From: Candidatus Microgenomates bacterium
GTDB lineage: Bacteria; Patescibacteriota; Microgenomatia; JAADGY01
Assembly: GCA_015486555.1 (NCBI GenBank)
Contig: WFRL01000058.1
Span: forward strand, 1 to 37,155
Direction: 5' to 3'
Length of the DNA: 37,155 bases
Shown in pieces: positions 3,915-37,155 of this stretch. The notes under the pieces were generated by a model, which was given only the letters and a program-made list of their open reading frames with translations, ran no database searches and was not told the origin of the DNA. A program made the position numbers and the translations under genes. Numbering within the stretch: the stretch's first letter is position 1; each line of letters opens with the position of its first letter.

Positions 3915-4081
3915 CGGGATCTAGCGCAGCGCTGTGTTTTGGCTCTTTTCTCTCTTCAGGTCATTCTGAGCGGAGCGAAGAATCTAGCGAAGCGCAAATA
4001 CTTAGCTCCCAAACTTGAGTAGACACCCGTGCGCCTATCGGCTAGATCCTTCACTTCGCCTGACGGCTCGTTCAGGATGAC
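3915..4081. repeat. Cluster R2 of the palindromic element family (one full element 3960-4081 plus a truncated arm at about 3915-3934)
   Basis: Arm 3960-3996(+): GTCATTCTGAGCGGAGCGAAGAATCTAGCGAAGCGCA. Inverted arm at 4030-4081. The core carries AAACTTGAGT. Confidence 0.8.
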
Positions 4082-4256
4082 TTCAAGAGAAGAGATAATG
4101 TTCTGATCATTAGTTATTGGAATTTGGATATTGCCTGCCCCATAAAGAATGAAATTTCTTTCGGGGTTTGAAAATTGATCATTGATAATTGGTTATTTTA
4201 CTAAGTCCCGAGATCTGAGTTCTGAGATTTGGTTCCAATATGTTTATAATAAAACT

Positions 4257-9300: not shown

Positions 9301-10107
9301 ACTGTCCTCATCTAGTTTTTCTCCTCCCCACCAAATAAGGTTATCCACAGTCTCGGCTATTGAATGAGTCAGAAGCCTGTCCATTTCTTGTTTAACTCTT
9401 TCTAGAGCCTCTTTGTTTTTAGGCAGTTTAAGATTACCCTCAAGGAAAGTAGAGGCCTGCTGGTAGAGGTCTCCTTTTAATTCCTCTACCTGCCTCAGGT
9501 CCGTAGCTGAAGGTGGAGGTAATAGCTCCACCTCCTTGGTTTCAGCTGCTGCTTCGGTTGGGGCCTTTTCCTTGAGAACCTTTTTAAAAGGAAGAATGAT
9601 CAAATAATCAACCGGCGTTTGGTTAGTTTGGTTAATAAGTTGTTTTTCAAGGGCTTCCTGGTATGTTTCAACTACTTCATCGATGGTGCTTACTTCTACC
9701 CTTTCTATTTGCTGGTGGCTGAGAACGGCTAATAATTCTTGAAGGCTAAATGTCTGTTGGAGGTTGCCCCATAAAGCCCCGTAGGCATAGGTCTCCTTAA
9801 GAAGGTTCTTAACTGTTTCGCCTAAGCCATTAAGAATCTTAAGGGAAAGAGTGAATTTTTTTGAAGGAAGATTAATGAGAAGAGTTAGTTCTGGTTGTTC
9901 TTCTAGTTCAGAAAGTGATTGATAAAGGCTTTCTAACCTTTCCTTTCGATCTTGGTGAGTAAGGATTTCTCCGCCTACTTGGACTACTCTTTCTCGAAGG
10001 CCAAGTTTTTCAACCTCAATCAAAAAAAGGAGTTTATTAAAGCACTCTAACCAGCCTTCTATATTTTGAGTCTCTTGCCAACAAGTTTTTTTCTGGGTTT
10101 CGACCAT
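6373..10107 (-). CDS. Giant (1,244 aa) membrane protein with a C-terminal CHAP cysteine peptidase/amidase domain
   Basis: No signal peptide and about 610 aa of soluble N-terminus. An extremely Lys/Arg-rich stretch lies at nt ~8010-8265 and a Gly-rich multi-TM block at nt ~7497-7875. The exodomain is Cys-rich and ends in CHAP motifs: YVQCTEFV (Cys about aa 1121, nt 6745-6747) and NGHVGIV (His about aa 1192). Confidence 0.8.
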   Translation of the reverse strand: MVETQKKTCWQETQNIEGWLECFNKLLFLIEVEKLGLRERVVQVGGEILTHQDRKERLESLYQSLSELEEQPELTLLINLPSKKFTLSLKILNGLGETVKNLLKETYAYGALWGNLQQTFSLQELLAVLSHQQIERVEVSTIDEVVETYQEALEKQLINQTNQTPVDYLIILPFKKVLKEKAPTEAAAETKEVELLPPPSATDLRQVEELKGDLYQQASTFLEGNLKLPKNKEALERVKQEMDRLLTHSIAETVDNLIWWGGEKLDEDSLASLVSQKIIDNLLLSEDVQDKIFRQSWLDLRASLKKHPVDLENDLQKSLFSITEKRSDHLEAVNRLAAFSRQAPLNSSDLKNLAKDVIRRQLKLSIPDAAKHEEEINTLAEQAANYITYVKPAEKILIAPSALEKILQESPLVQAHPEVKEIIDTTGVIFKRPSQRMFRLPKGAWKKYLFKSLFTKENNRKLIIEKGLNPFSAYDWLLHPTEEVEKEFEWLKKGSPIRVLGKTVTTRKPLTEGNKLHHQFEEMLKWRKDHEDILKEVKLPFLARSYLKFQRLKTRLIGQPLLKLTTLLSLPSYQLSIRLNHVQKEVQDSRVVQEVINSRHWPIINKILGGVEAVAHPKTLRKKVRRKIRKLWRKSFLGKRVRQARLKIIRTVRKYRHKKVTGFLLRVVATPRRGIRALRKKLAAWWKRFKNSPTGKRFGRIFKGFWLITHPKQLLKKGLIWSLKKIGQLSIKVLSKLGLDLAGLASGVGTVLAVLALIKDLYPFLRRWWKEILTFIAGWLYLIINFILSHLLAVFFGLIGGFLIGGFIGGPVGFLLGFGVGFGLEHLIGSLSTLASSAASLASSLWGTMTAFATSTTGITLALTVIPGGTALVAASLFWYPYLSTAFLKSNLYYQSGGTQYLTLYKNLRLDKVNSKYILKDERSAFPRLSNAAARDKIKLTFRIKMKAEGKDLKIVAVKDVSQIYTKDSQLPSGRLVKTLTYDLTSNFKDLTVGSEEIVDYQFPLQPEYKNSRLANTLQVTIQDNQGKKYQKITGFNTLIGQAPLIGCQEIAAEAEKLVNQLYRCSDNQIADCYCPANPNPALGYFVNSYHCGNTGENGPFKNYIRADANWVEKENHYVQCTEFVNDVYRHLYNGQSLYNLCDNKTFGNAGDWWVNAPQSCSHFLSAIPNQPGKTPSLGDILVFQGGGGNGHVGIVTQLGLNTLTFASANVSQRFITLENNGGWKSILPGLRLVGWLHNLSCQP

Positions 10108-12868: not shown

Positions 12869-12895
12869 ATAAAAATTATGACATACCTTTACATT

Positions 12896-13262
12896 GGAAC
12901 TCGGAGCTTGGAGCTTGGAACTTGGAACTCAGAACTTAGAACTTAGAGCTCGGAACTTAGCCTGTTAACGAGTCATTCTGAGGAGCCATAGCGACGAAGA
13001 ATCTAGCGAAGCGCAAAGGTATTAGCACTCAAGTTTTTTTCTAAGCTCTTACTACGGGTTATTAATTGTTTTTCAACCTAGTTCCTCCAACCTAGTTCCT
13101 AGTTCCAATTCCCTGCGCCTTCGGCTAGATCCTTCACTTCGCCTGACGGCTCGTTCAGGATGACACGGGAGATAAGGTTATGGATTTTGGTAATTAGGTT
13201 TTTGATATTGTTTAGGACCTGCCTGCTGGCAGGCAGGTTTAGAGTTTAGGATTTAGGATTTA
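12896..13262. repeat. Cluster R3: 7-nt tandem array (12896-12960), full long-core element (12972-13164), 22-nt palindrome (13217-13238) and TTTAGGA heptamers
   Basis: ARCTYRG heptamers repeated about 9 times. Arms at 12972-13015(+) and 13114-13164(-). ACCTGCCTGCtgGCAGGCAGGT, followed by gtttagg/atttagg/attta. Confidence 0.85.
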
Positions 13263-14047: not shown

Positions 14048-14190
14048 CTTAAAGCAATTGATTCCTAGTTGTTTATTCTTTGTTAGTTAATCCCTATTAG
14101 CCTTACCTAGTTAGAGACAGATAACAATAAGGAATAGTAAACATCCAACTTATTAAAGTGCACTTGTTCTAATCTTTTTTTCCTCTCCAG

Positions 14191-14573
14191 GTCCCCCAAT
14201 AGGTCGGGGCTAGCTAAGCACCTCTATAGAAAATTCTAAATCCTAAACAATATCACAATCCTAGTGATTTAAATTCAGAACTTTTTTTCCTGGTCATTCT
14301 GACCCTCCGTGGCGGAGGGGAAGAATCTAGCCGAAGGCGCATGGATGTGCTCCCAAGCGTGGATGCCAGCACCTCTGCGCTCGCTGTTGCTCGCTAGGTC
14401 CTTCACTTCGCCTGGCGGCTTGTTCAGGATAACCGGGGGAGGTGCGCCTTCGGCTAGATCCTTCGTCGCCACAGCTCCTCAGGATGACGGGGAGGGGGCG
14501 CCTAACAGCTCGTTCAGGATGACTCCTTAGAAAGGTTTTACTTTATGACTTTACAAACTTTATGCTTTATGAG
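14191..14573. repeat. Cluster R4: degenerate arm (14191-14220), full element (14293-14433), two further same-orientation arms (14443-14488, ~14497-14523) and CTTTATG repeats (14539-14573)
   Basis: Same arm consensus as R1-R3, e.g. GTCATTCTGACCCTCCGTGGCGGAGGGGAAGAATCTAGCCGAAGGCGCA at 14293-14341. Confidence 0.85.
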
Positions 14574-14696
14574 CTACCCAACTGAATTAATTTTTTAGTT
14601 TAGTTTTGAGTTAAGTAAACGTCTATTTTCAATCTGAATTTTAATTAGGTAAGGCTCTACCCCCTCCAAAAAAGGCCTTATAGTATAATAAGGCAA

Positions 14697-17600
14697 ATGC
14701 AAAAAGAAGTTATAGATAAGCTGAAGGTATTAACTAAAGAAGATTTAAGAGGCATTCGTGTCCTTTCCCTGGGCGAAGGGTTTCAGGTCTACCGTTTATT
14801 GGAAGAAGTAGCTGAAGCCTCTACTTTACTGGAATTAGGAGATACTCGGCCGACAAGGATAGAAAACCAAGTAAAGAGTGATTTGATTAAGAGGGATGCT
14901 CTTGAAAAAGGAAATGAAGCTCTAGAGGAATTAGTTAAAAGCCGTCTTCTTTTTACTGTCCTTCTAATTGACCTCTACCATCAAGGAACAGAAGGAAAAA
15001 GAAGAGTTACTGAATTATTAGAGATTGTTTTTCCTGGGGATGACTCGAGAAAATCCCAGATAATTGACTTTTTAGAGAGTAAAGGTATAACTAACCCTGT
15101 TGGCGTTAAGGTTTTTAATGAGTTTATTAACCAGATAAAGAAAGAGGTCGGTAAAGGTTGGCCAAAAAAGGCGAGAAGAGGAAGCTCCATGAGGCAAAAA
15201 CAATACCAACTTATTAAGTGGTACTGGCGAGTGCGAGGTGTTGGTCTGCTCACTAAATATACAAGGGAGATTCGAGATCAGGGACCAGGGGCACCAAAAA
15301 AAGTAGTGTATCGGTTGAGAATGAAAGGGAAATTTATAGAGATTAGTAGATCAAAAATCATAGAGATTAATAAGTTACTGGAATCTAAGGATAAAGATAA
15401 AGGTTGGGTGGGCCCGAGAATTAAGGCAATTTTTTCAGACCCCAACCTGCAAGAAAGTCTTAAGGAGTGGTTAAAGCGTTCCAAAAAAGAGATTCTTTTT
15501 CTGAGTACGGAAAGAGATACGAGTAAGGAGGAACGGCTATTGGATTTATTAGAAAAGAAAGTGAGACAGATAAAACCGGAAGTATTTGATGAAGAGACGA
15601 GAGAACGACTTGAGGATATTAAGGAGAGAATAAACGAGAGGAGATATCAATTAAAAGATGAAACAGCCGTTGACCTGGTTGAATCAATAACCAATGAGAT
15701 GCAACCTAAAGAAGTTGTGGAAGCAAAAGGAAGATCTAATACTTGGGGTTTAAGTGAGTGGTTGGCCAAGTACTATCGAGCCTTAGACCTAGAAAGGTTT
15801 CTCAATGCTTTGGGGAGGGTTGGTAGATTCTTGAGCCAAGTTAGCAAGTATCAGAAGGAGTTTAATAAATATTTACAGGCTCCAGAGAGTGAGAAAGATA
15901 ATTTGACTCAGTCCTTTCTTTCTCTCCTTAGCGATTTATCCTTAGCTACCAACCTCTTGGAGTTAATGGCTCTTGACAGTATTAAAAGAACTAAAATAAC
16001 TTACCAAGATTTCTTTAACTATACAAGGAAAAAACAGTTAGAATTTCTTAAAGACAATAAAATTATATCTGATGATGTTGCTAGATGGTTCCTGGATGTT
16101 TTTGATTTAGAAGAGGAGATAAAGGAAAAATTTGCTAGTTTGATTGAACGAATACCCAGAAAGACAGCTAAAGAGATTTTTAAGAAGAGGTGGCAAGAGA
16201 TTAACGGAGTTGATACAAGTGATTTTGCTGAGGCACTAGGAGATTTTGAGGATTTGCTTGCAAAAAAAGACAAAGTAACTCCCGACGATTTGCGCCGAAT
16301 AGCATCTCGTTATAGTTATGAAGGTGGAATATTTGATTGGGAAAGTAAACAGAGAGATGAGTTGCGGAATCTTTTTGGTGAGGAGGGGGAGGCAGAGTTC
16401 TTAGATCTGAAAAAAAGAGAATCGTCCTTGAGTGGTGATGAAGAGGAAAAATTGAAAAAGTATTACGACAAGTTGCGCAGTCGGATGTATCAGATTTTAA
16501 ATGACCAGATTCTTGGAGTCAATCAAGAATATGGAAGCCAAACTGTTTTGGAGCCGACTATTCGGATTATTGCTTTGTTAGCTCTTCTGCCTCGAGCAGA
16601 AAGGTCTAATTTTTATGGCTTTCTTTTTGCTTCTAAGTTTGACGTTGCTAGATTGCAGATTAAAGATCTTAGTTACCAGCCTTTCGACCACATTAAGATT
16701 AATGGCCTTCAGGGTTTAGAGTTTGAGATAAATGTAGAAGAAGGAAAAACAGAGACCTTGACTGTTTTTGATTTTTTAGATGTTTGGGAGGAACCGGCGA
16801 ATAAATACTTTGTTCACTCCCAGGAACGTGATAGATTAAAAGATCCTAAAAAGTGGGAAAGTTGGGTTGTTCAGTATGCTCTGGCTTTAACAGAGAGTGA
16901 ACGGCAGAAGATTGAAAAGGCAGTTATGAAGCAGACGGTCAAGGAACGTTTAGGTATAGAGTACGATGAGTTAAGTAGCGAAGAGAAGAGTAAAGTTGAG
17001 GTTCTTATGTTGGCTGCTTTAGGAGTGTCTAATGCTACCTTTAGGTCAGCCTTTATCCACACCGGCGCTGACATGAAAGAAACCGGACTCCTTAAAGGAT
17101 TAATTGGCTCCTCATTAGCCGCAGAACTTTATATCAATCTGTATGGTGGCTTGGGGCTTAGTCAGGAGATAATAACTACTATGTCCGATGTCCTTTCCCG
17201 AACTCGGAAGGGTAGGCTTCCTATCCTTGAGTATATTACTAAAGATGAAGACGTGTTTGGAAATAATGAAGATAAAAAAGAAATATTTAAAAATGGGATG
17301 AAGGTTCTTTTCCTTTTACCAATGAATAATGGCTTCCGCCGGATAGGTGAGGTTCATTTATTAGCTCGAGATAAAGAATTGAGGGAGGAGTTATTTAGCC
17401 ATCCCCTGGTGGCGGAGATGATTACTTTAATTGATACTACACCGGAGCTAAAGGAGAAATTAATAAACGTGTTTGAACTTAAGGGAAAGAAAAAGCCGCT
17501 TGATGCAAAACAGGTAGGAGCTCGAGAAATTTTAACTAAAATAATGGAGAAGTGGAGCTATCATTATCTTTTACGGAATGAAGAAAATAAAGAAGAAGAA

Positions 17601-18446
17601 TTTCTTCCTATTAAAGCGGCTGATTACGGTGATTATATTAAATACTCTCAAGCCTTTGATGCCGTAAAAGGTGATCTTTTTAATTTTGCTTACCGGCCAA
17701 CTAAGCCTCTTTTGATAAAAATTTATACCACGCTGGCTAATACTTCAGCTGGTCCAGAATTTGCTAAAACCTTTATGAGGCCATTAATAAGTGATTATAT
17801 TGATTTTTACAAGCCCCGCGGCTTAACAAAACCAATCTTAGGTTTACCTTTCTTACCCTTAAAGATGCTCTCTAATCTCCTTTCAGGGAAAAGGATCCTC
17901 AGCCGGGAAGATTATCTTGATCTTTTCCAGGCTAGAGTTAAAAATCCAAGTAAGAGGATAATGGGGGCGGAGGCAGGTGGAGAGGTGGCCCATTATGATT
18001 TGGTGAAAGGGCGCTGGGTGTTTGAGGAAAAACCAGTTTTGGAACTTTGGAGAGAAAAGTTCCACCGGCGAACGGTGGGGGAATATGGTGAGGAGACTGA
18101 GGAAGGTCAGGGAGTAAGTGAAAAAGCTATGTCGAGGGTGGATATGTTACGCCACTTTTGGTTAATGGCCAAAGGAGAGGCATCAATTGCTACCCTTCTT
18201 GGTCTGGACGATGCAGTTATTAAGAGGAAAGATTTGGTAGATGACTTAGTTGAGTTCCGGAATATGCATATAATTGATGCCCCAATGTTTAATAGTCTTA
18301 TTCGGGAAAAGTTTGGTTTTTGGTTTTATCTGCAGTACCGTTTCCATTTAGGTGGGCTTGAGTTCACCACCCTATTAGATTTTTTGGGCAGTGGGATAGG
18401 AGTAGGTCTTTCTTCGGCCTTGAGTGAAGGATTTAAGACTCGTTAA
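14697..18446 (+). CDS. Giant (1,249 aa) orphan protein, predicted mostly soluble and helical, with a short C-terminal hydrophobic segment
   Basis: Uninterrupted 3.75-kb ORF with Glu/Lys-rich composition. I can see no signal peptide, P-loop or catalytic motif. The last ~40 aa (LEFTTLLDFLGSGIGVGLSSAL) are hydrophobic. Confidence 0.75.
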   Translation: MQKEVIDKLKVLTKEDLRGIRVLSLGEGFQVYRLLEEVAEASTLLELGDTRPTRIENQVKSDLIKRDALEKGNEALEELVKSRLLFTVLLIDLYHQGTEGKRRVTELLEIVFPGDDSRKSQIIDFLESKGITNPVGVKVFNEFINQIKKEVGKGWPKKARRGSSMRQKQYQLIKWYWRVRGVGLLTKYTREIRDQGPGAPKKVVYRLRMKGKFIEISRSKIIEINKLLESKDKDKGWVGPRIKAIFSDPNLQESLKEWLKRSKKEILFLSTERDTSKEERLLDLLEKKVRQIKPEVFDEETRERLEDIKERINERRYQLKDETAVDLVESITNEMQPKEVVEAKGRSNTWGLSEWLAKYYRALDLERFLNALGRVGRFLSQVSKYQKEFNKYLQAPESEKDNLTQSFLSLLSDLSLATNLLELMALDSIKRTKITYQDFFNYTRKKQLEFLKDNKIISDDVARWFLDVFDLEEEIKEKFASLIERIPRKTAKEIFKKRWQEINGVDTSDFAEALGDFEDLLAKKDKVTPDDLRRIASRYSYEGGIFDWESKQRDELRNLFGEEGEAEFLDLKKRESSLSGDEEEKLKKYYDKLRSRMYQILNDQILGVNQEYGSQTVLEPTIRIIALLALLPRAERSNFYGFLFASKFDVARLQIKDLSYQPFDHIKINGLQGLEFEINVEEGKTETLTVFDFLDVWEEPANKYFVHSQERDRLKDPKKWESWVVQYALALTESERQKIEKAVMKQTVKERLGIEYDELSSEEKSKVEVLMLAALGVSNATFRSAFIHTGADMKETGLLKGLIGSSLAAELYINLYGGLGLSQEIITTMSDVLSRTRKGRLPILEYITKDEDVFGNNEDKKEIFKNGMKVLFLLPMNNGFRRIGEVHLLARDKELREELFSHPLVAEMITLIDTTPELKEKLINVFELKGKKKPLDAKQVGAREILTKIMEKWSYHYLLRNEENKEEEFLPIKAADYGDYIKYSQAFDAVKGDLFNFAYRPTKPLLIKIYTTLANTSAGPEFAKTFMRPLISDYIDFYKPRGLTKPILGLPFLPLKMLSNLLSGKRILSREDYLDLFQARVKNPSKRIMGAEAGGEVAHYDLVKGRWVFEEKPVLELWREKFHRRTVGEYGEETEEGQGVSEKAMSRVDMLRHFWLMAKGEASIATLLGLDDAVIKRKDLVDDLVEFRNMHIIDAPMFNSLIREKFGFWFYLQYRFHLGGLEFTTLLDFLGSGIGVGLSSALSEGFKTR

Positions 18447-18471: not shown

Positions 18472-21447
18472 TTATTTTTCTTTAAGTTCGGGAGATAATG
18501 TTGGTGGCAGGCCGTTGGGGAAGCAGTGGAAACGATAAGGGCAACGGCGGCAGACTAAGCGATCTCTAGTCCGAGGAAATTCTAAATCTTGAATTTTTTG
18601 CCAAACATCAACTAGGAGTTGCCTTAGCTGTTCTTTTTCTTCTTCTGAAGGGGTGAAGCTGAAAAAGAGGGATTTTTGGTTACGGTTGCCGATAAACCAG
18701 AGAGCAAAGGTCAATTTTTTGTCTTCAAACTCTGGTTCGTTTTTGAGGAGAAGAGAATAAAAAGTCAGTTGGCGGCGATAGTCTTCATTAGGATCGGCTA
18801 GGGCCCTTTTAGAAGGTATATGGCCTGTTTTGTAATCAATAACTAGAAAAGTGTCCTTGTCAGAGATGTCTATTCGGTCAACCTTCCCTGTCAAAGGAAC
18901 CTTTTCTGGGGTAAAGACATGCTTTTGAGAGAAATCTAGTTCCGCCTTGTAAGGCTGGCTTTTTTTTAATTGAGGGAGAAGTTGGTCTTGGTAAAAGTGA
19001 GCTAGAAGTTGTTTGGCCTCTCCAATTACTCTTTCTTTTTCCTCCTCCTCGAGAATTTCTCGACTAATGTAGGTTTGAAGAACCTCATTTAATTGATCTA
19101 AACCAAGCCCGTTTTTTTCCTCTTTATAACTTAGCAGCCATTCCTCTAAGGCTTTATGGACAGCCGAGCCTAAAATAAGGTTGGCCGACTTAACTCGCGG
19201 TAAGCGGTAGAGATTATTCAGGAGGAACTGGTATGGGCAGCTAAGGTAGGTTTTTAAGCTGGTAGGAGATAACTTAATTCCTTTTAACCGTTCTCGCCAA
19301 TAGTCTTTTTCGGGAATGACCAGCTGGCTAGGCTTAAAAAGGGAGACAATTACCTTCTCTAATTTTTGTAAATTATCTTGATGTTCTTCTTGACTGATTA
19401 ATTTTTCATCCAGCCGATGGACGAAGACAGAGGGTAGGACTTTTTTCATTAAACCATCCGACCAAACATTAAGGGGGACAGTGATGAAAACCTGTTTTTT
19501 GGCTCGGGTTAAAGCCACATAGAACAGCCTTTCTTCCTCTTCTTCCTTCTCCTTGCGGGGGTCAGAAGAGAGTGAAGAAAACTCAACTATCTCAGCAGGT
19601 AACTTTAAGGGATTAGGAACGTTTTTATGGCTCCACTTTTTCTCAATAAACTGAGGAATGAAGACAACGCTAAACTCCTGCCCCTTGGCTTTATGGACTG
19701 TAGTTAACTTAACGGCCTCAGCATTGGTTAAGAGAGGCTCGGCTTCAAGGGAAAGATGGTGCTTTTCTAGGGTTTCTAGGACTTCTTCCAACTGAGATAA
19801 AGAAGTAACTGTCTGGTCTCGGTACCAGTTTTTGATTTGATTGAAGAAGGTGTAGAGATAAAAAAGTTGGTAACGGTCTTTCTGGCCATTCATTAATTGG
19901 GTTAAAAAGCCAGTCGAGTCCATTAAGTTTTGGATAAAAAGGGGTAGGGGAAGGCGGAGACTTTCCTTCTTAGCCTCCTCTAACTGGTCAAAAATTTTCC
20001 AGATGGGGGCAAAATGTTTTTCTCCTTGAAGGTAGTATTCAAAGATGTTTAAGCCGTTTTCTCTTGCTTGGCGGAAAGCTTGACCAATGAGAGTGGGAGA
20101 AAGGTGGTAAAAGGGCAGATTGAGGAGGTTGAATAATTTTTCCTCGGCTTCTTTCTGGCCCCAAAAGTTAACCACTGTCAGGAGAAGTTTTAATTGGAGA
20201 ACAACTGGCTGGTTGAGAATGTTAATCTGTCCTTCAACCACGTAGGGAATCTTTTCCTTATTAAGAAAAGGGATGTAAACGGCCGCGTCCTTGTTTTCCC
20301 GGTAAATAATTCCTATTTCCTGAGGAGGAAGACCTTCTTTGAGGAGTTTTTTAATTTCTTGAACAATGAACTCAGCTTCCTGAGTAAGTGAAGTAAAAAG
20401 GTGAAGTTGAACTCGACTTTGACTAAGAGAAGAAGTTGGTTTGGCCGCCTCTATTTTTTTATCTATCCCCAAGTTCAAGTTAAATTTCTTTCGTTGAGGT
20501 TCGATAAAATGCTGGCTAAGAAGAATAATCTCCTCTAGTGAACGATAATTAGTTTTCAAATTGATAATTTTTGTCCTGGGAAAGAGGTGTTTAAAGAAGA
20601 GAAAGTTAGCCCGGGAGGCTCCCTGAAAGCGGAAGATTGACTGGTCATCATCACCAACAACAAAAACATTAGCCTCCTCTCCCCAGAAAGTTGATAGTTG
20701 CCTGATTAGCTTATTTTGAGCAGCGTTAGTATCTTGATATTCATCTACCAAGAGATACAAGGTTCGTTCCTGAACCGCTAAAGCCAACTCTCTGTCTTTT
20801 TTGAGGAGAGTTATTACTTCATTAATCATATCCTCGAAGTCATAAAGGCCTTCTTTTTTTAAGCGGCGCTGATACTCTTGGTAAAGGTGGACCAATTCTT
20901 TTAGGCGCTTTTTCTGCTTATCCTCTAAGGAAGTAGAGGAAGAGATAATTTCCTTTAGTTGATCTGAATTAACCGACTCCTTTTTTAGGTCACTGAGAGC
21001 CTTGATTAAATGGCGAACGTAAAAACTAGTATCTCCAAAAGGTTTAAGGTAATAATAATTTCCCCTTTTTAGGATTTCTTCTATTAGCTGGATCTTTTCG
21101 ATGATATTTATCGGCCTGCCCTGACGGAGATGAGGAAACTTCTCCGGATATTGGCGAATAATCTGACCAGCTAGAGAATGAAAAGTAGAGATGTTTACTT
21201 GGTAAGCAGTTTCTCCTATGATTTGGGCCAAGCGGCTAATCATATTCTCGGCTGCCGCCTCGGTATAGGTGAGAGCGGTGATGGCGTAAGGGGGGGTATC
21301 AGTTTTTTGGAGAATATTGGCGATTCGAAGAGTTAGGACTTGAGTTTTTCCGGTGCCCGGACCGGCAATGACCATTACCGGACCCTCTAAACTGTCGACA
21401 GCCTCCTTTTGCCGCTGGTTTAAACTCTGGTAAAGTTGGTCAAACAT
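18472..21447 (-). CDS. UvrD/PcrA-type SF1 helicase fused to a C-terminal PD-(D/E)XK nuclease with a Cys cluster (AddA/AddB-like), 991 aa
   Basis: Walker A GPGTGKTQV, DEYQDT (motif II), VGDDDQSIFRFQGA, TVHKAKGQEF, YVALTRAK. Nuclease motifs GKVDRID...LVIDYKTG. Cysteines in CPYQF and CRRCPYRFHC. Confidence 0.85.
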   Translation of the reverse strand: MFDQLYQSLNQRQKEAVDSLEGPVMVIAGPGTGKTQVLTLRIANILQKTDTPPYAITALTYTEAAAENMISRLAQIIGETAYQVNISTFHSLAGQIIRQYPEKFPHLRQGRPINIIEKIQLIEEILKRGNYYYLKPFGDTSFYVRHLIKALSDLKKESVNSDQLKEIISSSTSLEDKQKKRLKELVHLYQEYQRRLKKEGLYDFEDMINEVITLLKKDRELALAVQERTLYLLVDEYQDTNAAQNKLIRQLSTFWGEEANVFVVGDDDQSIFRFQGASRANFLFFKHLFPRTKIINLKTNYRSLEEIILLSQHFIEPQRKKFNLNLGIDKKIEAAKPTSSLSQSRVQLHLFTSLTQEAEFIVQEIKKLLKEGLPPQEIGIIYRENKDAAVYIPFLNKEKIPYVVEGQINILNQPVVLQLKLLLTVVNFWGQKEAEEKLFNLLNLPFYHLSPTLIGQAFRQARENGLNIFEYYLQGEKHFAPIWKIFDQLEEAKKESLRLPLPLFIQNLMDSTGFLTQLMNGQKDRYQLFYLYTFFNQIKNWYRDQTVTSLSQLEEVLETLEKHHLSLEAEPLLTNAEAVKLTTVHKAKGQEFSVVFIPQFIEKKWSHKNVPNPLKLPAEIVEFSSLSSDPRKEKEEEEERLFYVALTRAKKQVFITVPLNVWSDGLMKKVLPSVFVHRLDEKLISQEEHQDNLQKLEKVIVSLFKPSQLVIPEKDYWRERLKGIKLSPTSLKTYLSCPYQFLLNNLYRLPRVKSANLILGSAVHKALEEWLLSYKEEKNGLGLDQLNEVLQTYISREILEEEEKERVIGEAKQLLAHFYQDQLLPQLKKSQPYKAELDFSQKHVFTPEKVPLTGKVDRIDISDKDTFLVIDYKTGHIPSKRALADPNEDYRRQLTFYSLLLKNEPEFEDKKLTFALWFIGNRNQKSLFFSFTPSEEEKEQLRQLLVDVWQKIQDLEFPRTRDRLVCRRCPYRFHCFPNGLPPTLSPELKEK

Positions 21448-24362: not shown

Positions 24363-24516
24363 ATAAGAATAAATCCGAAACTCTAAATTCTAAGCTCCAA
24401 ATAAATTCGAAATCCTAAATCCGAAATCCTAAACCTGCCTGCCGGCAGGCAGGTCCTAAATTCAAATGATCCAAATTCAAAACTTTTTCTCCAGGTCATC
24501 CTGAGGAAGCTGGGGG
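24363..24516. repeat. Cluster R5: CCTAAAT/CCGAAAT-type 7-nt array, 22-nt perfect palindrome (24433-24454), truncated arm (24495-24516)
   Basis: ACCTGCCTGCCGGCAGGCAGGT is a perfect palindrome and the inverted counterpart of 13217-13238. GTCATCCTGAGG starts at 24495. Confidence 0.8.
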
Positions 24517-25276: not shown

Positions 25277-25882
25277 ATGAAAAAAATCGAAACAATCTGG
25301 CACCATATTTTATGGTCGGCCTTGATCAAAAAGCAATATCGCCAAACTCAAAAAGGTTTGGCCCAACAGTTCGCTTATTCTCTAAGTACAGTTCACCATG
25401 CCTTAAAAGTGCCGGTGAAGATAGGAGCAATAAGGAAAGACCACTGGGGGTTTGTTCTCACTGATTTTAAAAAACTCCTTTTTTATTGGGCCAGTGTCAG
25501 AGGTCTGGAAGCCAACATGGTTTACCAAACTTATGTTAACCTGCCGGTAAAAGAGTTGGAGGCTGAGCTCCCTGGTGAAGGAATTTACGGCGGCTATAGC
25601 GCCGCTAGATTTTGGTTTCTAGAGTCCCCAGCCGATTATGACAAGGTTTTTTATTACTTTCAGGATGTTGAGCTGCTGAAGCGCCGATTTCCGCCAAATA
25701 CCCGTTATCCTGCCAATCTTTTTATCCTCAAAACCCAAAATCTTGAGAACTATCGGAAAATTTATCACCAAGAATACACTACCTTGCCCCATACTTTTGT
25801 TGATATTTGGAATCTTTCTGATTGGTATGCCCAAGAATTTATTAAGGCCTTACAAGAAAAAATTGATGAATTATTATTCTAA
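25277..25882 (+). CDS. wHTH protein, AbiEi-like putative antitoxin/transcriptional regulator (201 aa)
   Basis: N-terminal HTH-like segment (YRQTQKGLAQQFAYSLSTVHHALKVPVKIGAIRK) plus a C-terminal domain. Overlaps the downstream nucleotidyltransferase gene by 17 nt. Confidence 0.5.
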   Translation: MKKIETIWHHILWSALIKKQYRQTQKGLAQQFAYSLSTVHHALKVPVKIGAIRKDHWGFVLTDFKKLLFYWASVRGLEANMVYQTYVNLPVKELEAELPGEGIYGGYSAARFWFLESPADYDKVFYYFQDVELLKRRFPPNTRYPANLFILKTQNLENYRKIYHQEYTTLPHTFVDIWNLSDWYAQEFIKALQEKIDELLF

Positions 25883-26474
25883 TCTTATCACTGAAAAAAG
25901 CTGGCAGGAGCTAGGAAGCCTTAAGAGGCTAGTTGACTTTGTCTTGATTGGAGGCTGGGCGGTTTATCTTTATACCCAAGCTTTAAAGTCTAAAGATATT
26001 GACATCCTGATTGGCTATGGACAGCTTGAAAAGTTAAAGCAAAGATATGTAGTCTTTAAAAATGGCCGCTTGAAAAAGTATGAGGCAAGAAGAGGAGAAA
26101 TTCAGATTGATGTTTACCTTCCTTATTATTCTCAGATTGGTATTCCAGTAGAAGATCTGATAAGCCACACAGTAGTCCTTTCCGGATTTACTACTTTGGA
26201 AGTTGAATATCTCCTGACTACCAAAGTTTACGTTCTTTCTCGGCGTCAAAACACCCCCAAGGGTAGGAAAGATCTAGCTGATATCCTCGCTTTGTGGCGT
26301 TATGCCAAGGTAGACCCTGCTTTATTTAAAGCGATAATTCGCCAGTATTCTCTTGGGAAAGAATGGTATTCTTGTCAAAAACAAGTTTATGTTCTAAGCG
26401 ACTTTCCAGAATTAAAACTCAATCATTATACCTTTGCCAGGTTTAAGAAATATTTGCAGCAGGTGGTGGATTAA
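25866..26474 (+). CDS. Minimal Pol-beta-fold nucleotidyltransferase, AbiEii-like putative toxin (202 aa from ATG 25866)
   Basis: hGG-x13-DIDI (VLIGGWAVYLYTQALKSKDIDILI), a third acidic strand (IQIDVYL) and a C-terminal GRKDLADILAL motif. The ORF-track TTG start at 25743 lies inside the upstream gene and is unlikely. Confidence 0.55.
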   Translation: MNYYSNLITEKSWQELGSLKRLVDFVLIGGWAVYLYTQALKSKDIDILIGYGQLEKLKQRYVVFKNGRLKKYEARRGEIQIDVYLPYYSQIGIPVEDLISHTVVLSGFTTLEVEYLLTTKVYVLSRRQNTPKGRKDLADILALWRYAKVDPALFKAIIRQYSLGKEWYSCQKQVYVLSDFPELKLNHYTFARFKKYLQQVVD

Positions 26475-29029: not shown

Positions 29030-29120
29030 CATCGTCTAAGTTCTATTTCCAAATACAACACAGCTGTTAGAAAGTAATTCATCACCAAAATAGAATTAGA
29101 TGATTTTATCTCTTATGCCT

Positions 29121-29275
29121 CCAACCTAGCTTCTAGTTCTAATCCCCATGCGCCTGTCGGCTAGATCCTTCGTCGCCCCAGCTCCTCAGGATGACGAGGA
29201 ATAAATTTTTAATTTGAAATTTTAATTTCTTTCCGAGCCCTGAGCTCTAAGTCCCAAGTTCCGGACTCCAATGAC
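29121..29275. repeat. Cluster R6: half element (core heptamers 29121-29147, arm 29149-29195) plus CYRAGYY heptamer array (29231-29275)
   Basis: TGCGCCTGTCGGCTAGATCCTTCGTCGCCCCAGCTCCTCAGGATGAC, followed by ccgagcc/ctgagct/ctaagtc/ccaagtt/ccggact. Confidence 0.8.
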
Positions 29276-37037: not shown

Positions 37038-37155
37038 AACCTTCCTCTCTCCACGTCATCCTGAACGAGCCGTCAGGCGAAGTGAAGGATCTAGCCGAAG
37101 GCGCATGAGAGTTAACTTAAGTTTGGGTGCCAATACCTTTGCGCTCGCTCCGCTC
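37038..37155. repeat. Cluster R7 of the element family (arm 37055-37105, core, start of inverted arm at 37140; cut by the window end)
   Basis: GTCATCCTGAACGAGCCGTCAGGCGAAGTGAAGGATCTAGCCGAAGGCGCA, then ...GGGTGCCAAT...TTGCGCTCGCTCCGCTC. Confidence 0.8.

Follow-up and report, generated by a model that had tools for sequence, protein, structure and literature searches.

Type IV secretion system (T4SS) loci of Patescibacteria are described, in the available text of PMC12102498, as combining an MPF-FATA-like VirB4 near dnaA/dnaN with arrays of VirB2-like pilins and as mostly lacking a coupling protein and a relaxase. According to the available text of PMC10633639 and PMC12857230, a locus of this kind is essential for epibiotic growth of Southlakia epibionticum, and the former source suggests that these systems may export proteins rather than DNA. 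Here we analyze a gene of a Candidatus Microgenomates bacterium located on a 37,155 nucleotide stretch (contig WFRL01000058.1 of assembly GCA_015486555.1), which is referred to as the window. The gene encodes a 1,249-residue protein, the target of this study. Since its relatives lie among T4SS genes wherever they were found, the target probably assists a type IV secretion machine or is transported by it, in either case as a protein not described before. Our preferred reading, for which we estimate a probability of roughly 45 %, is that of a lineage-specific, cytoplasmic and mainly α-helical accessory or scaffold subunit of a chromosomal, monoderm-type (MPF-FATA-like) T4SS of the kind known from Patescibacteria, also termed candidate phyla radiation (CPR). 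The gene content of the window by itself suggests an organism of the Patescibacteria type.

The evidence for this assignment comes from the comparison of gene neighborhoods within the protein family, which consists of two close relatives of the target (78–80 % and 48–49 % identity) and four distant clusters (20–30 %). Six independent loci provide a usable upstream flank, namely the window, L001, L004, L005, L006 and L007, and in each of them T4SS genes stand beside the family member. The gene order in the window is a 198-aa bitopic membrane protein (−), a giant membrane protein with a CHAP domain (−, CHAP giant), a PrgI-like gene (+), VanW (−), two pilins (+), the target (+) and a UvrD/PD-(D/E)XK helicase (−). 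From the CHAP giant over PrgI-like gene, VanW and both pilins to the target, the order is the same in L001 and L004, the loci of the two close relatives, and the pairing of pilin 1 with pilin 2 is conserved in the relatives' loci. A link of the target to a pilin/PrgI apparatus, which a first description made from the DNA letters alone (the sequence-only reading) had proposed, is thus supported, as all homologues with enough flank lie among T4SS genes. The comparison of synteny that had been suggested there as a check was positive, with neighbors that are orthologous across lineages.

In the three loci L005, L006 and L007, whose target homologues share only 20–25 % identity with the target, dnaA, dnaN, virB4, a traC-like gene, a PrgI-like gene (in L007 none was called), a gene for about 200 aa and the CHAP giant are followed by the target homologue, which is divergent from the CHAP giant and separated from it by 50–200 bp. 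The virB4 products of these loci contain P-loop_TraG, AAA_10 and DUF87 domains. Orthology extends to the neighbors as well: the PrgI-like proteins of L005 and L006, whose genes adjoin the traC-like gene and virB4, are 41–45 % identical to that of the window, the 198-aa bitopic orthologues in L005–L007 show 34–39 % identity and the CHAP giants of these loci 27–28 % over their full length. Directly downstream of the target homologue and convergent to it, a polytopic membrane protein of 483–503 aa is encoded in L004, L006, L007 and L010, the last being a fourth distant contig without upstream flank. Within the window no gene for VirB4, VirD4, VirB11, a TraC-like protein or a homologue of the polytopic protein of about 495 aa was found. 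Due to the lack of VirB4, the TraC-like protein and the polytopic homologue, we conclude that the cluster was split in the window lineage, with the target staying with the CHAP/PrgI/pilin part. The module of the target was held together while virB4, the traC-like gene and dnaA/dnaN became separated from it.

This arrangement bears on the suggestion of the sequence-only reading that the target could be a motor substitute, i.e., an energizing component replacing the ATPase of the T4SS. A large cytoplasmic protein in a window without VirB4, VirD4 or VirB11 gene invites such an assignment. However, the target contains neither a Walker A ([AG]xxxxGK[ST]) nor any other NTPase motif, and Pfam and NCBIfam revealed no P-loop family such as AAA_10, P-loop_TraG, T4SS-DNA_transf or T2SSE in any family member. 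Moreover, a canonical VirB4 is encoded only a few genes away from the distant homologues. It follows from the latter that the ATPase is not replaced but only encoded elsewhere in the genome of the window. The motor function is therefore unsupported and we consider it very improbable.

It was also considered whether the function is related to secretion at all. Against an unrelated role stands the observation that the CHAP giant upstream and the polytopic protein downstream are immediate neighbors in independent contigs, and that the flanks differ wholly between the lineages (dnaA/dnaN/virB4 in one case, VanW, pilins and UvrD in the other), whereas the module is intact. A cytoskeletal, chromosome-organizing or envelope-biogenesis scaffold, whose synteny would merely reflect small and little-rearranged genomes, would on the other hand explain the missing homology to any T4SS component, the promoter-like element that the gene has to itself at a distance of 650 bp from the pilins in the window, the genes for guanylate kinase, L25, a UvrD-like helicase and valyl-tRNA synthetase (ValRS) that are interleaved with the cluster, and the location of the distant loci next to dnaA/dnaN. 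Since the module persisted while its housekeeping surroundings changed completely, this explanation is weakened and appears quite unlikely.

To find relatives, 1.84 billion representative proteins were scanned exhaustively with phmmer, which revealed six related clusters of 1,026–1,413 aa, all unannotated. With two close and four distant relatives the target is not strictly the orphan it had been taken for. The close relatives are P0002 (1,231 aa, from the metagenome-assembled genome GCA_027028625.1), found by word-indexed search, and P0003 (1,256 aa, 48–49 % identity, E = 0), encoded in L004. The distant ones are P0004 (1,183 aa, E = 5e-23; its full-length form P0009 with 1,350 aa was obtained by cluster look-up), P0005 (1,339 aa, E = 5e-22), P0006 (1,413 aa, E = 3e-13) and P0007 (1,026 aa, cut by the contig end, E = 2e-12). 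A further hit, P0008 (4,282 aa, E = 9e-7), was rejected as a relative. It is a tandem array of repeats of about 61 residues, and its score is inflated because about 50 residues of the target are matched many times by these repeats. In the word-indexed search the target retrieved only itself and P0002, P0005 retrieved only itself, and the seven-sequence profile returned nothing new. A search of genome contigs led only to the already known close relative; scans of metagenome and viral contigs confirmed no relative, and no match to the C-terminal half of the target was obtained from plasmids by tblastn. With about seven protein clusters among 1.84 billion representatives, the family may concern a narrow lineage only.

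Comparison with Pfam, NCBIfam, PHROGs and PADLOC gave no significant match for the target, and the seven family members share no consistent match in Pfam and NCBIfam. Spectrin_Anc-1_2, Internalin_N and DnaG_DnaB_bind scored below the Pfam gathering thresholds, were not shared among the members and were thus rejected. Among PDB sequences the best hit of phmmer and profile searches had E = 0.1. None of the described T4SS components (VirB1–B11, PrgA–L, TrsD, TraC-like) was matched significantly in Pfam, NCBIfam, PDB sequences or Foldseek comparisons, and the searches identified no known housekeeping family either; a match to such a family would have spoken against the sequence-only reading. Membership of the target in a phage, plasmid or defense system found no support in the PHROGs, PADLOC, plasmid, viral-contig and BFVD comparisons, all of which were negative.

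The target is a real gene under purifying selection, as its ratio of nonsynonymous to synonymous substitution rates (dN/dS) is 0.154 with dS 0.77 in comparison to the L001 orthologue (78–80 % amino acid identity depending on the method). Values of 0.112 for the CHAP giant and 0.118 for the PrgI-like gene were obtained in the same comparison and are close to that of the target, whereas ValRS, the UvrD-like helicase and guanylate kinase are lower with 0.04–0.05. Most features noted in the sequence-only reading were confirmed: the open reading frame (ORF) of 3.75 kb is uninterrupted from ATG to TAA (14697..18446, + strand), and neither signal peptide, P-loop, metal or catalytic signature nor internal repeats were found by motif scan, Kyte–Doolittle analysis and self-BLAST. 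In detail, a regular-expression check revealed no Walker A, HExxH, CxxC, GxGxxG or HxH motif, and the window contains no paralogue. The N-terminus is charged, the first 70 residues are free of hydrophobic segments, and no segment of 19 residues reaches a Kyte–Doolittle mean (KD19) of 1.6, the approximate threshold usually applied for transmembrane helices (maximum 1.49). The protein is rich in Glu (10.4 %) and Lys (9.8 %), as had been stated, with Leu (12.7 %) as the commonest residue and 6.8 % Arg; Lys, Arg, Asp and Glu together account for 33 %. The helical character is reflected in the low-confidence models discussed below. The target is devoid of Cys, whereas the composition of the remaining genes in the window would predict 4.6 residues (Poisson P ≈ 0.01), and the homologues contain 0–2 Cys each in more than 1,000 residues.

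An alignment of the target with its six relatives served to define the zones of conservation listed in Table 1. Within residues 1–350 the identity to the P0003 orthologue is 16–40 % per block of 50 residues (about 49 % overall), and 34–58 % of the positions are gapped in comparison to the distant homologues. The conserved core exhibits the motifs LLPxxxR, DFLDxWE, SRxxKG, xLRxIGDV, MxKWS, LFNFAxRPT, T(S/T)xG, FMKPL and YxxYR. Asp, Glu, Lys, Arg, Asn and Gln make up the conserved polar residues of the family, with no conserved His or Cys, and form no recognizable catalytic pattern.

Such a division into a variable and a conserved half could likewise belong to a substrate or effector of the T4SS, which would lack a Sec signal, be recognized via its conserved C-terminal region and tail, in the way known for many T4SS substrates with C-terminal signals, and act with its variable N-terminal half on the host bacterium. 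The gene is the fastest-evolving of the module and its product has neither signal peptide nor strong transmembrane segment, yet it is located inside a secretion locus; the near absence of Cys and the K/R-rich end that follows the hydrophobic stretch in most of the distant homologues also agree with an exported protein, as does the export of proteins rather than DNA that the available text of PMC10633639 considers for Patescibacteria. The conserved part of about 650 residues is, however, far above the size of a secretion signal domain, and a single-copy gene that keeps its place beside the machine genes in deeply diverged lineages would rather be expected for a structural component. Further, the two closest relatives are without terminal basic residues, and no toxin or enzyme domain was detected with Pfam/NCBIfam and PADLOC. 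Taken together, we regard the effector as a rather unlikely explanation.

At the C-terminus of all seven family proteins, a YxxYR-LG motif is followed by a short hydrophobic stretch in which Gly and other small residues are abundant. The peptide quoted in the sequence-only reading corresponds to residues 1219–1242 of the target. A hydrophobic, Gly-rich tail does exist there, although it covers about 20 rather than the supposed 40 residues and its hydrophobicity is moderate, with a KD19 of 1.23 and an Asp within the stretch. In the distant homologues the stretch comprises 14–18 residues with KD19 values of 1.35–1.68, in most cases with a Lys/Arg-rich end. In the two closest relatives, genuine stop codons shorten the protein by 10 residues (…GSGVGAIFS and …FSGLGAAFS), leaving a tail of about 16 residues including an Asp with KD19 values of 1.05–1.26. 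The proposed similarity to a tail anchor is therefore weakly supported: the position is conserved in the family, whereas the hydrophobicity is low and the tail is shorter in the closest relatives. Judged from these sequences, the tail is real and conserved in position but not a convincing autonomous membrane span, and a peptide that dips into the membrane or packs on helices by small-xxx-small contacts appears to be the better fit.

Structure models calculated by AlphaFold2 with the seven-sequence alignment reached a mean predicted local distance difference test score (pLDDT) of 55.2 and a predicted template modeling score (pTM) of 0.40 for residues 560–1249, and 53.7 and 0.32, respectively, for residues 1–600. 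Helices, the longest of about 30 residues, dominate both low-confidence models, and a few β-hairpins occur as well. The Foldseek comparison of these models, which had been suggested in the sequence-only reading, led to no fold: the best PDB matches had E = 0.19–0.41 and TM < 0.15. In PDB and BFVD nothing was found below E = 0.1 with these low-confidence models, and the top matches were generic helical-repeat proteins. A long coiled-coil or SMC-like scaffold, for which unbroken heptad coiled coils of more than 100 residues between ATPase heads are expected, was considered and rejected, as the longest modeled helices have about 30 residues (at low confidence), β-hairpins are interspersed and ATPase motifs are missing.

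For the accessory or scaffold subunit the following mode of action can be proposed. The conserved C-terminal half of about 650 residues would dock the target at the cytoplasmic face of the T4SS, where the terminal small-xxx-small peptide might dip into the membrane or pack on transmembrane helices of the CHAP giant or of a VirB6-like protein. The fast-evolving N-terminal half could then be the platform to which substrates or partners bind, a task otherwise performed by the adaptors of coupling proteins. Several findings weigh against this assignment. The functional evidence is guilt by association throughout, derived from gene position; no domain, fold or motif is shared with a known T4SS part, and neither sequence nor structure reveals a mechanism. 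The positional signal is consistent, with the restriction that the family is rare and carried by about six independent genomes of essentially two lineages, which makes a small sample for synteny. The structure models are unreliable (pLDDT about 54–55) and permit no fold assignment, a confident membrane anchor would require a more hydrophobic tail in the target and a longer one in the closest relatives, and the fast evolution of the gene within its module suits an effector as well. In addition, the 650 bp spacer filled with repeats and the conserved promoter-like element of the target's own part it from the pilins, which bears on a possible co-transcription.

The target had been placed directly after the pilin pair. 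In the window it starts 650 bp downstream; the corresponding distances in L001 and L004 are 76 and 99 bp. Relative to L001, the intergenic regions before and after the two pilin genes are enlarged due to dispersed repeats. These intergenic repeats resemble repetitive extragenic palindromes (REP) or miniature inverted-repeat transposable elements (MITE) and occur in both orientations at about 119–520, 3976–4082, 12890–13260, 14290–14530, 24410–24460, 29118–29196 and 37055–37107. Their cores are TGCGCCTTCGGCTAGATCCTTC and CGCCTGACGGCTCGTTCAGGATGAC, and the 22-mer core is matched five times with at most one mismatch, compared to zero matches expected. A 14-bp tandem repeat of the TTGGAACT type is located at 12894–12963.

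Immediately in front of the target a hairpin is found (Table 1) that overlaps with a TATAAT box and with AAGG, the ribosome-binding site of the gene. It is kept in L001 (about 9981–10000) and in L004 (about 9980–9998), where both bases of an outer stem pair differ, although the protein identity of the target orthologues falls to 49 %. The hairpin may act as an operator or in the control of translation.

Concerning the neighboring genes, the CHAP giant has a long N-terminal region without hydrophobic segments; it further comprises a basic, Lys/Arg-rich stretch, hydrophobic helices that are rich in Gly and grouped in one block, and a Cys-rich CHAP domain on the outer side. The usual hydrolases of the VirB1/PrgK kind are much smaller. 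The full length of the CHAP giant is conserved across the lineages. An origin of the target as a duplicate of the cytoplasmic domain of the CHAP giant was rejected by profile–profile comparison of the two families (probability 0.2 %). The 198-aa bitopic protein follows the CHAP giant in all lineages, belongs to no known family and gave nothing in a PDB profile search. According to its position and topology it could be a VirB8/PrgL-like subunit, which published surveys rarely detect in Patescibacteria. Apart from its signal peptide and many transmembrane helices, the polytopic protein exhibits a run of Gly residues and a pair of Cys, and its gene is usually followed by that of ribosomal protein L25. 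Neither Pfam nor PDB gave a match, and it is not present at this position in the window or L001; from its topology it may be a VirB6-like channel subunit.

On the other side, convergent to the target and separated from its stop codon by 25 bp, a 991-aa UvrD/PcrA-type helicase fused to a C-terminal PD-(D/E)XK (Cas4/AddB-like) nuclease is encoded (18472–21447, − strand); in L004 the polytopic protein and L25 intervene. Further downstream, two overlapping ORFs (25277–25882 and 25743–26474, + strand) may represent a type IV toxin–antitoxin system, the second showing a weak match to the AbiEii nucleotidyltransferase toxin (E = 1.7e-4, just under the gathering score).

Table 1. Positions of the target, its conservation zones and the accompanying elements (window coordinates unless another locus is named).
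Feature	Coordinates	Strand	Remarks
Target gene	14697..18446	+	ATG start, TAA stop (18444-18446); 1,249 aa; Cys-free, charge-rich, mostly helical
Target residues 1-350	14697..15746	+	Fast-evolving N-terminal region
Target residues 351-600	15747..16496	+	Intermediate conservation; invariant Trp464 in motif D-V-x-x-W-F/L
Target residues 601-1218	16497..18350	+	Conserved core of the family; homology strongest at about 600-1249
Target residues 1219-1249	18351..18443	+	Gly/small-residue-rich hydrophobic C-terminal peptide
Hairpin/palindrome GCCTTAT-AGTATA-ATAAGGC	14675..14694	+	2 nt before the target ATG
Spacer from pilin 2 to target, 650 bp	14048..14696		Dispersed REP/MITE-like repeats
VirB2-like T4SS pilin 1, 117 aa	13311..13664	+	PF18895, E = 5e-8
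VirB2-like T4SS pilin 2, 121 aa	13682..14047	+	PF18895, E = 1.4e-4; TrbC, E = 8e-3; both below gathering score
PrgI/VirB3-like membrane protein, 335 aa	10153..11160	+	With CarboxypepD_reg domain
CHAP giant, membrane protein, 1,244 aa	6373..10107	-	C-terminal CHAP peptidoglycan hydrolase domain (VirB1/PrgK-like)
Bitopic membrane protein, 198 aa	5789..6385	-	N-terminal transmembrane helix and outer domain of about 165 aa
Polytopic protein, 483-503 aa	L004 14139-15590; L006 14248-15744; L007 14096-15583; L010 3078-4589	- (all)	

T4SS genes are widespread in Patescibacteria and, in the one species that is genetically tractable, essential for growth on the host, as reported in the available text of PMC12102498 and PMC10633639; from the same sources, cargo and substrate choice appear obscure, as most of the loci contain neither coupling protein nor relaxase. 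Encoded between membrane components, a cytoplasmic protein that is both large and conserved is an obvious candidate for the missing part or the cargo. More specifically, the family might provide the missing cytoplasmic partner, either as a non-ATPase substitute of the coupling protein that selects substrates or as a conserved cargo delivered to the host bacterium, which we rate as doubtful. If true, this would offer a first molecular handle on the purpose of a relaxase-less, pilus-bearing monoderm T4SS, at least in this lineage.

With tail-anchored membrane proteins the target shares the lack of an N-terminal signal and the extreme C-terminus as sole hydrophobic feature conserved in position, followed by basic residues in most distant homologues. 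It differs by the KD19 of its Asp-containing tail, which stays below the usual threshold of about 1.6, and by the roughly 16 residues left in the two closest relatives. XVIPCD-type effectors of Xanthomonas are T4SS effectors with a conserved C-terminal recognition region of about 120 aa. Similar to these, the target combines a variable N-terminal with a conserved C-terminal part, has no Sec signal and is encoded in a T4SS locus; in contrast, it shows no sequence similarity to them, a conserved region of about 650 aa, no toxin domain and no evident adjacent immunity gene.

To VirD4/PcfC coupling proteins and their adaptor platforms only a functional analogy may exist, as a large cytoplasmic protein that would be held at the membrane by the translocon, in a group whose loci usually lack a nearby coupling protein according to the available text of PMC12102498. 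The target, however, has no N-terminal transmembrane anchor, no Walker A/B motifs and no match in sequence or fold, and its contact to the membrane would be C-terminal. The closest resemblance is to the Patescibacteria T4SS itself. VirB4 by dnaA/dnaN, the PrgI/VirB3-like protein, the CHAP hydrolase, the VirB2-like pilins and a locus without relaxase and coupling protein all recur in the available descriptions of PMC12102498 and PMC10633639, in which no component of the target's size or type appears. Differences are also given by the missing match of the target to any Pfam/NCBIfam profile and by the split cluster of the window lineage, in which virB4, the traC-like and the VirB6-like gene lie elsewhere. 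Compared with the systems covered by these sources, the T4SS is thus a known one, and the target family, which matches none of the libraries searched, would represent an additional, hitherto undescribed component or cargo of it.

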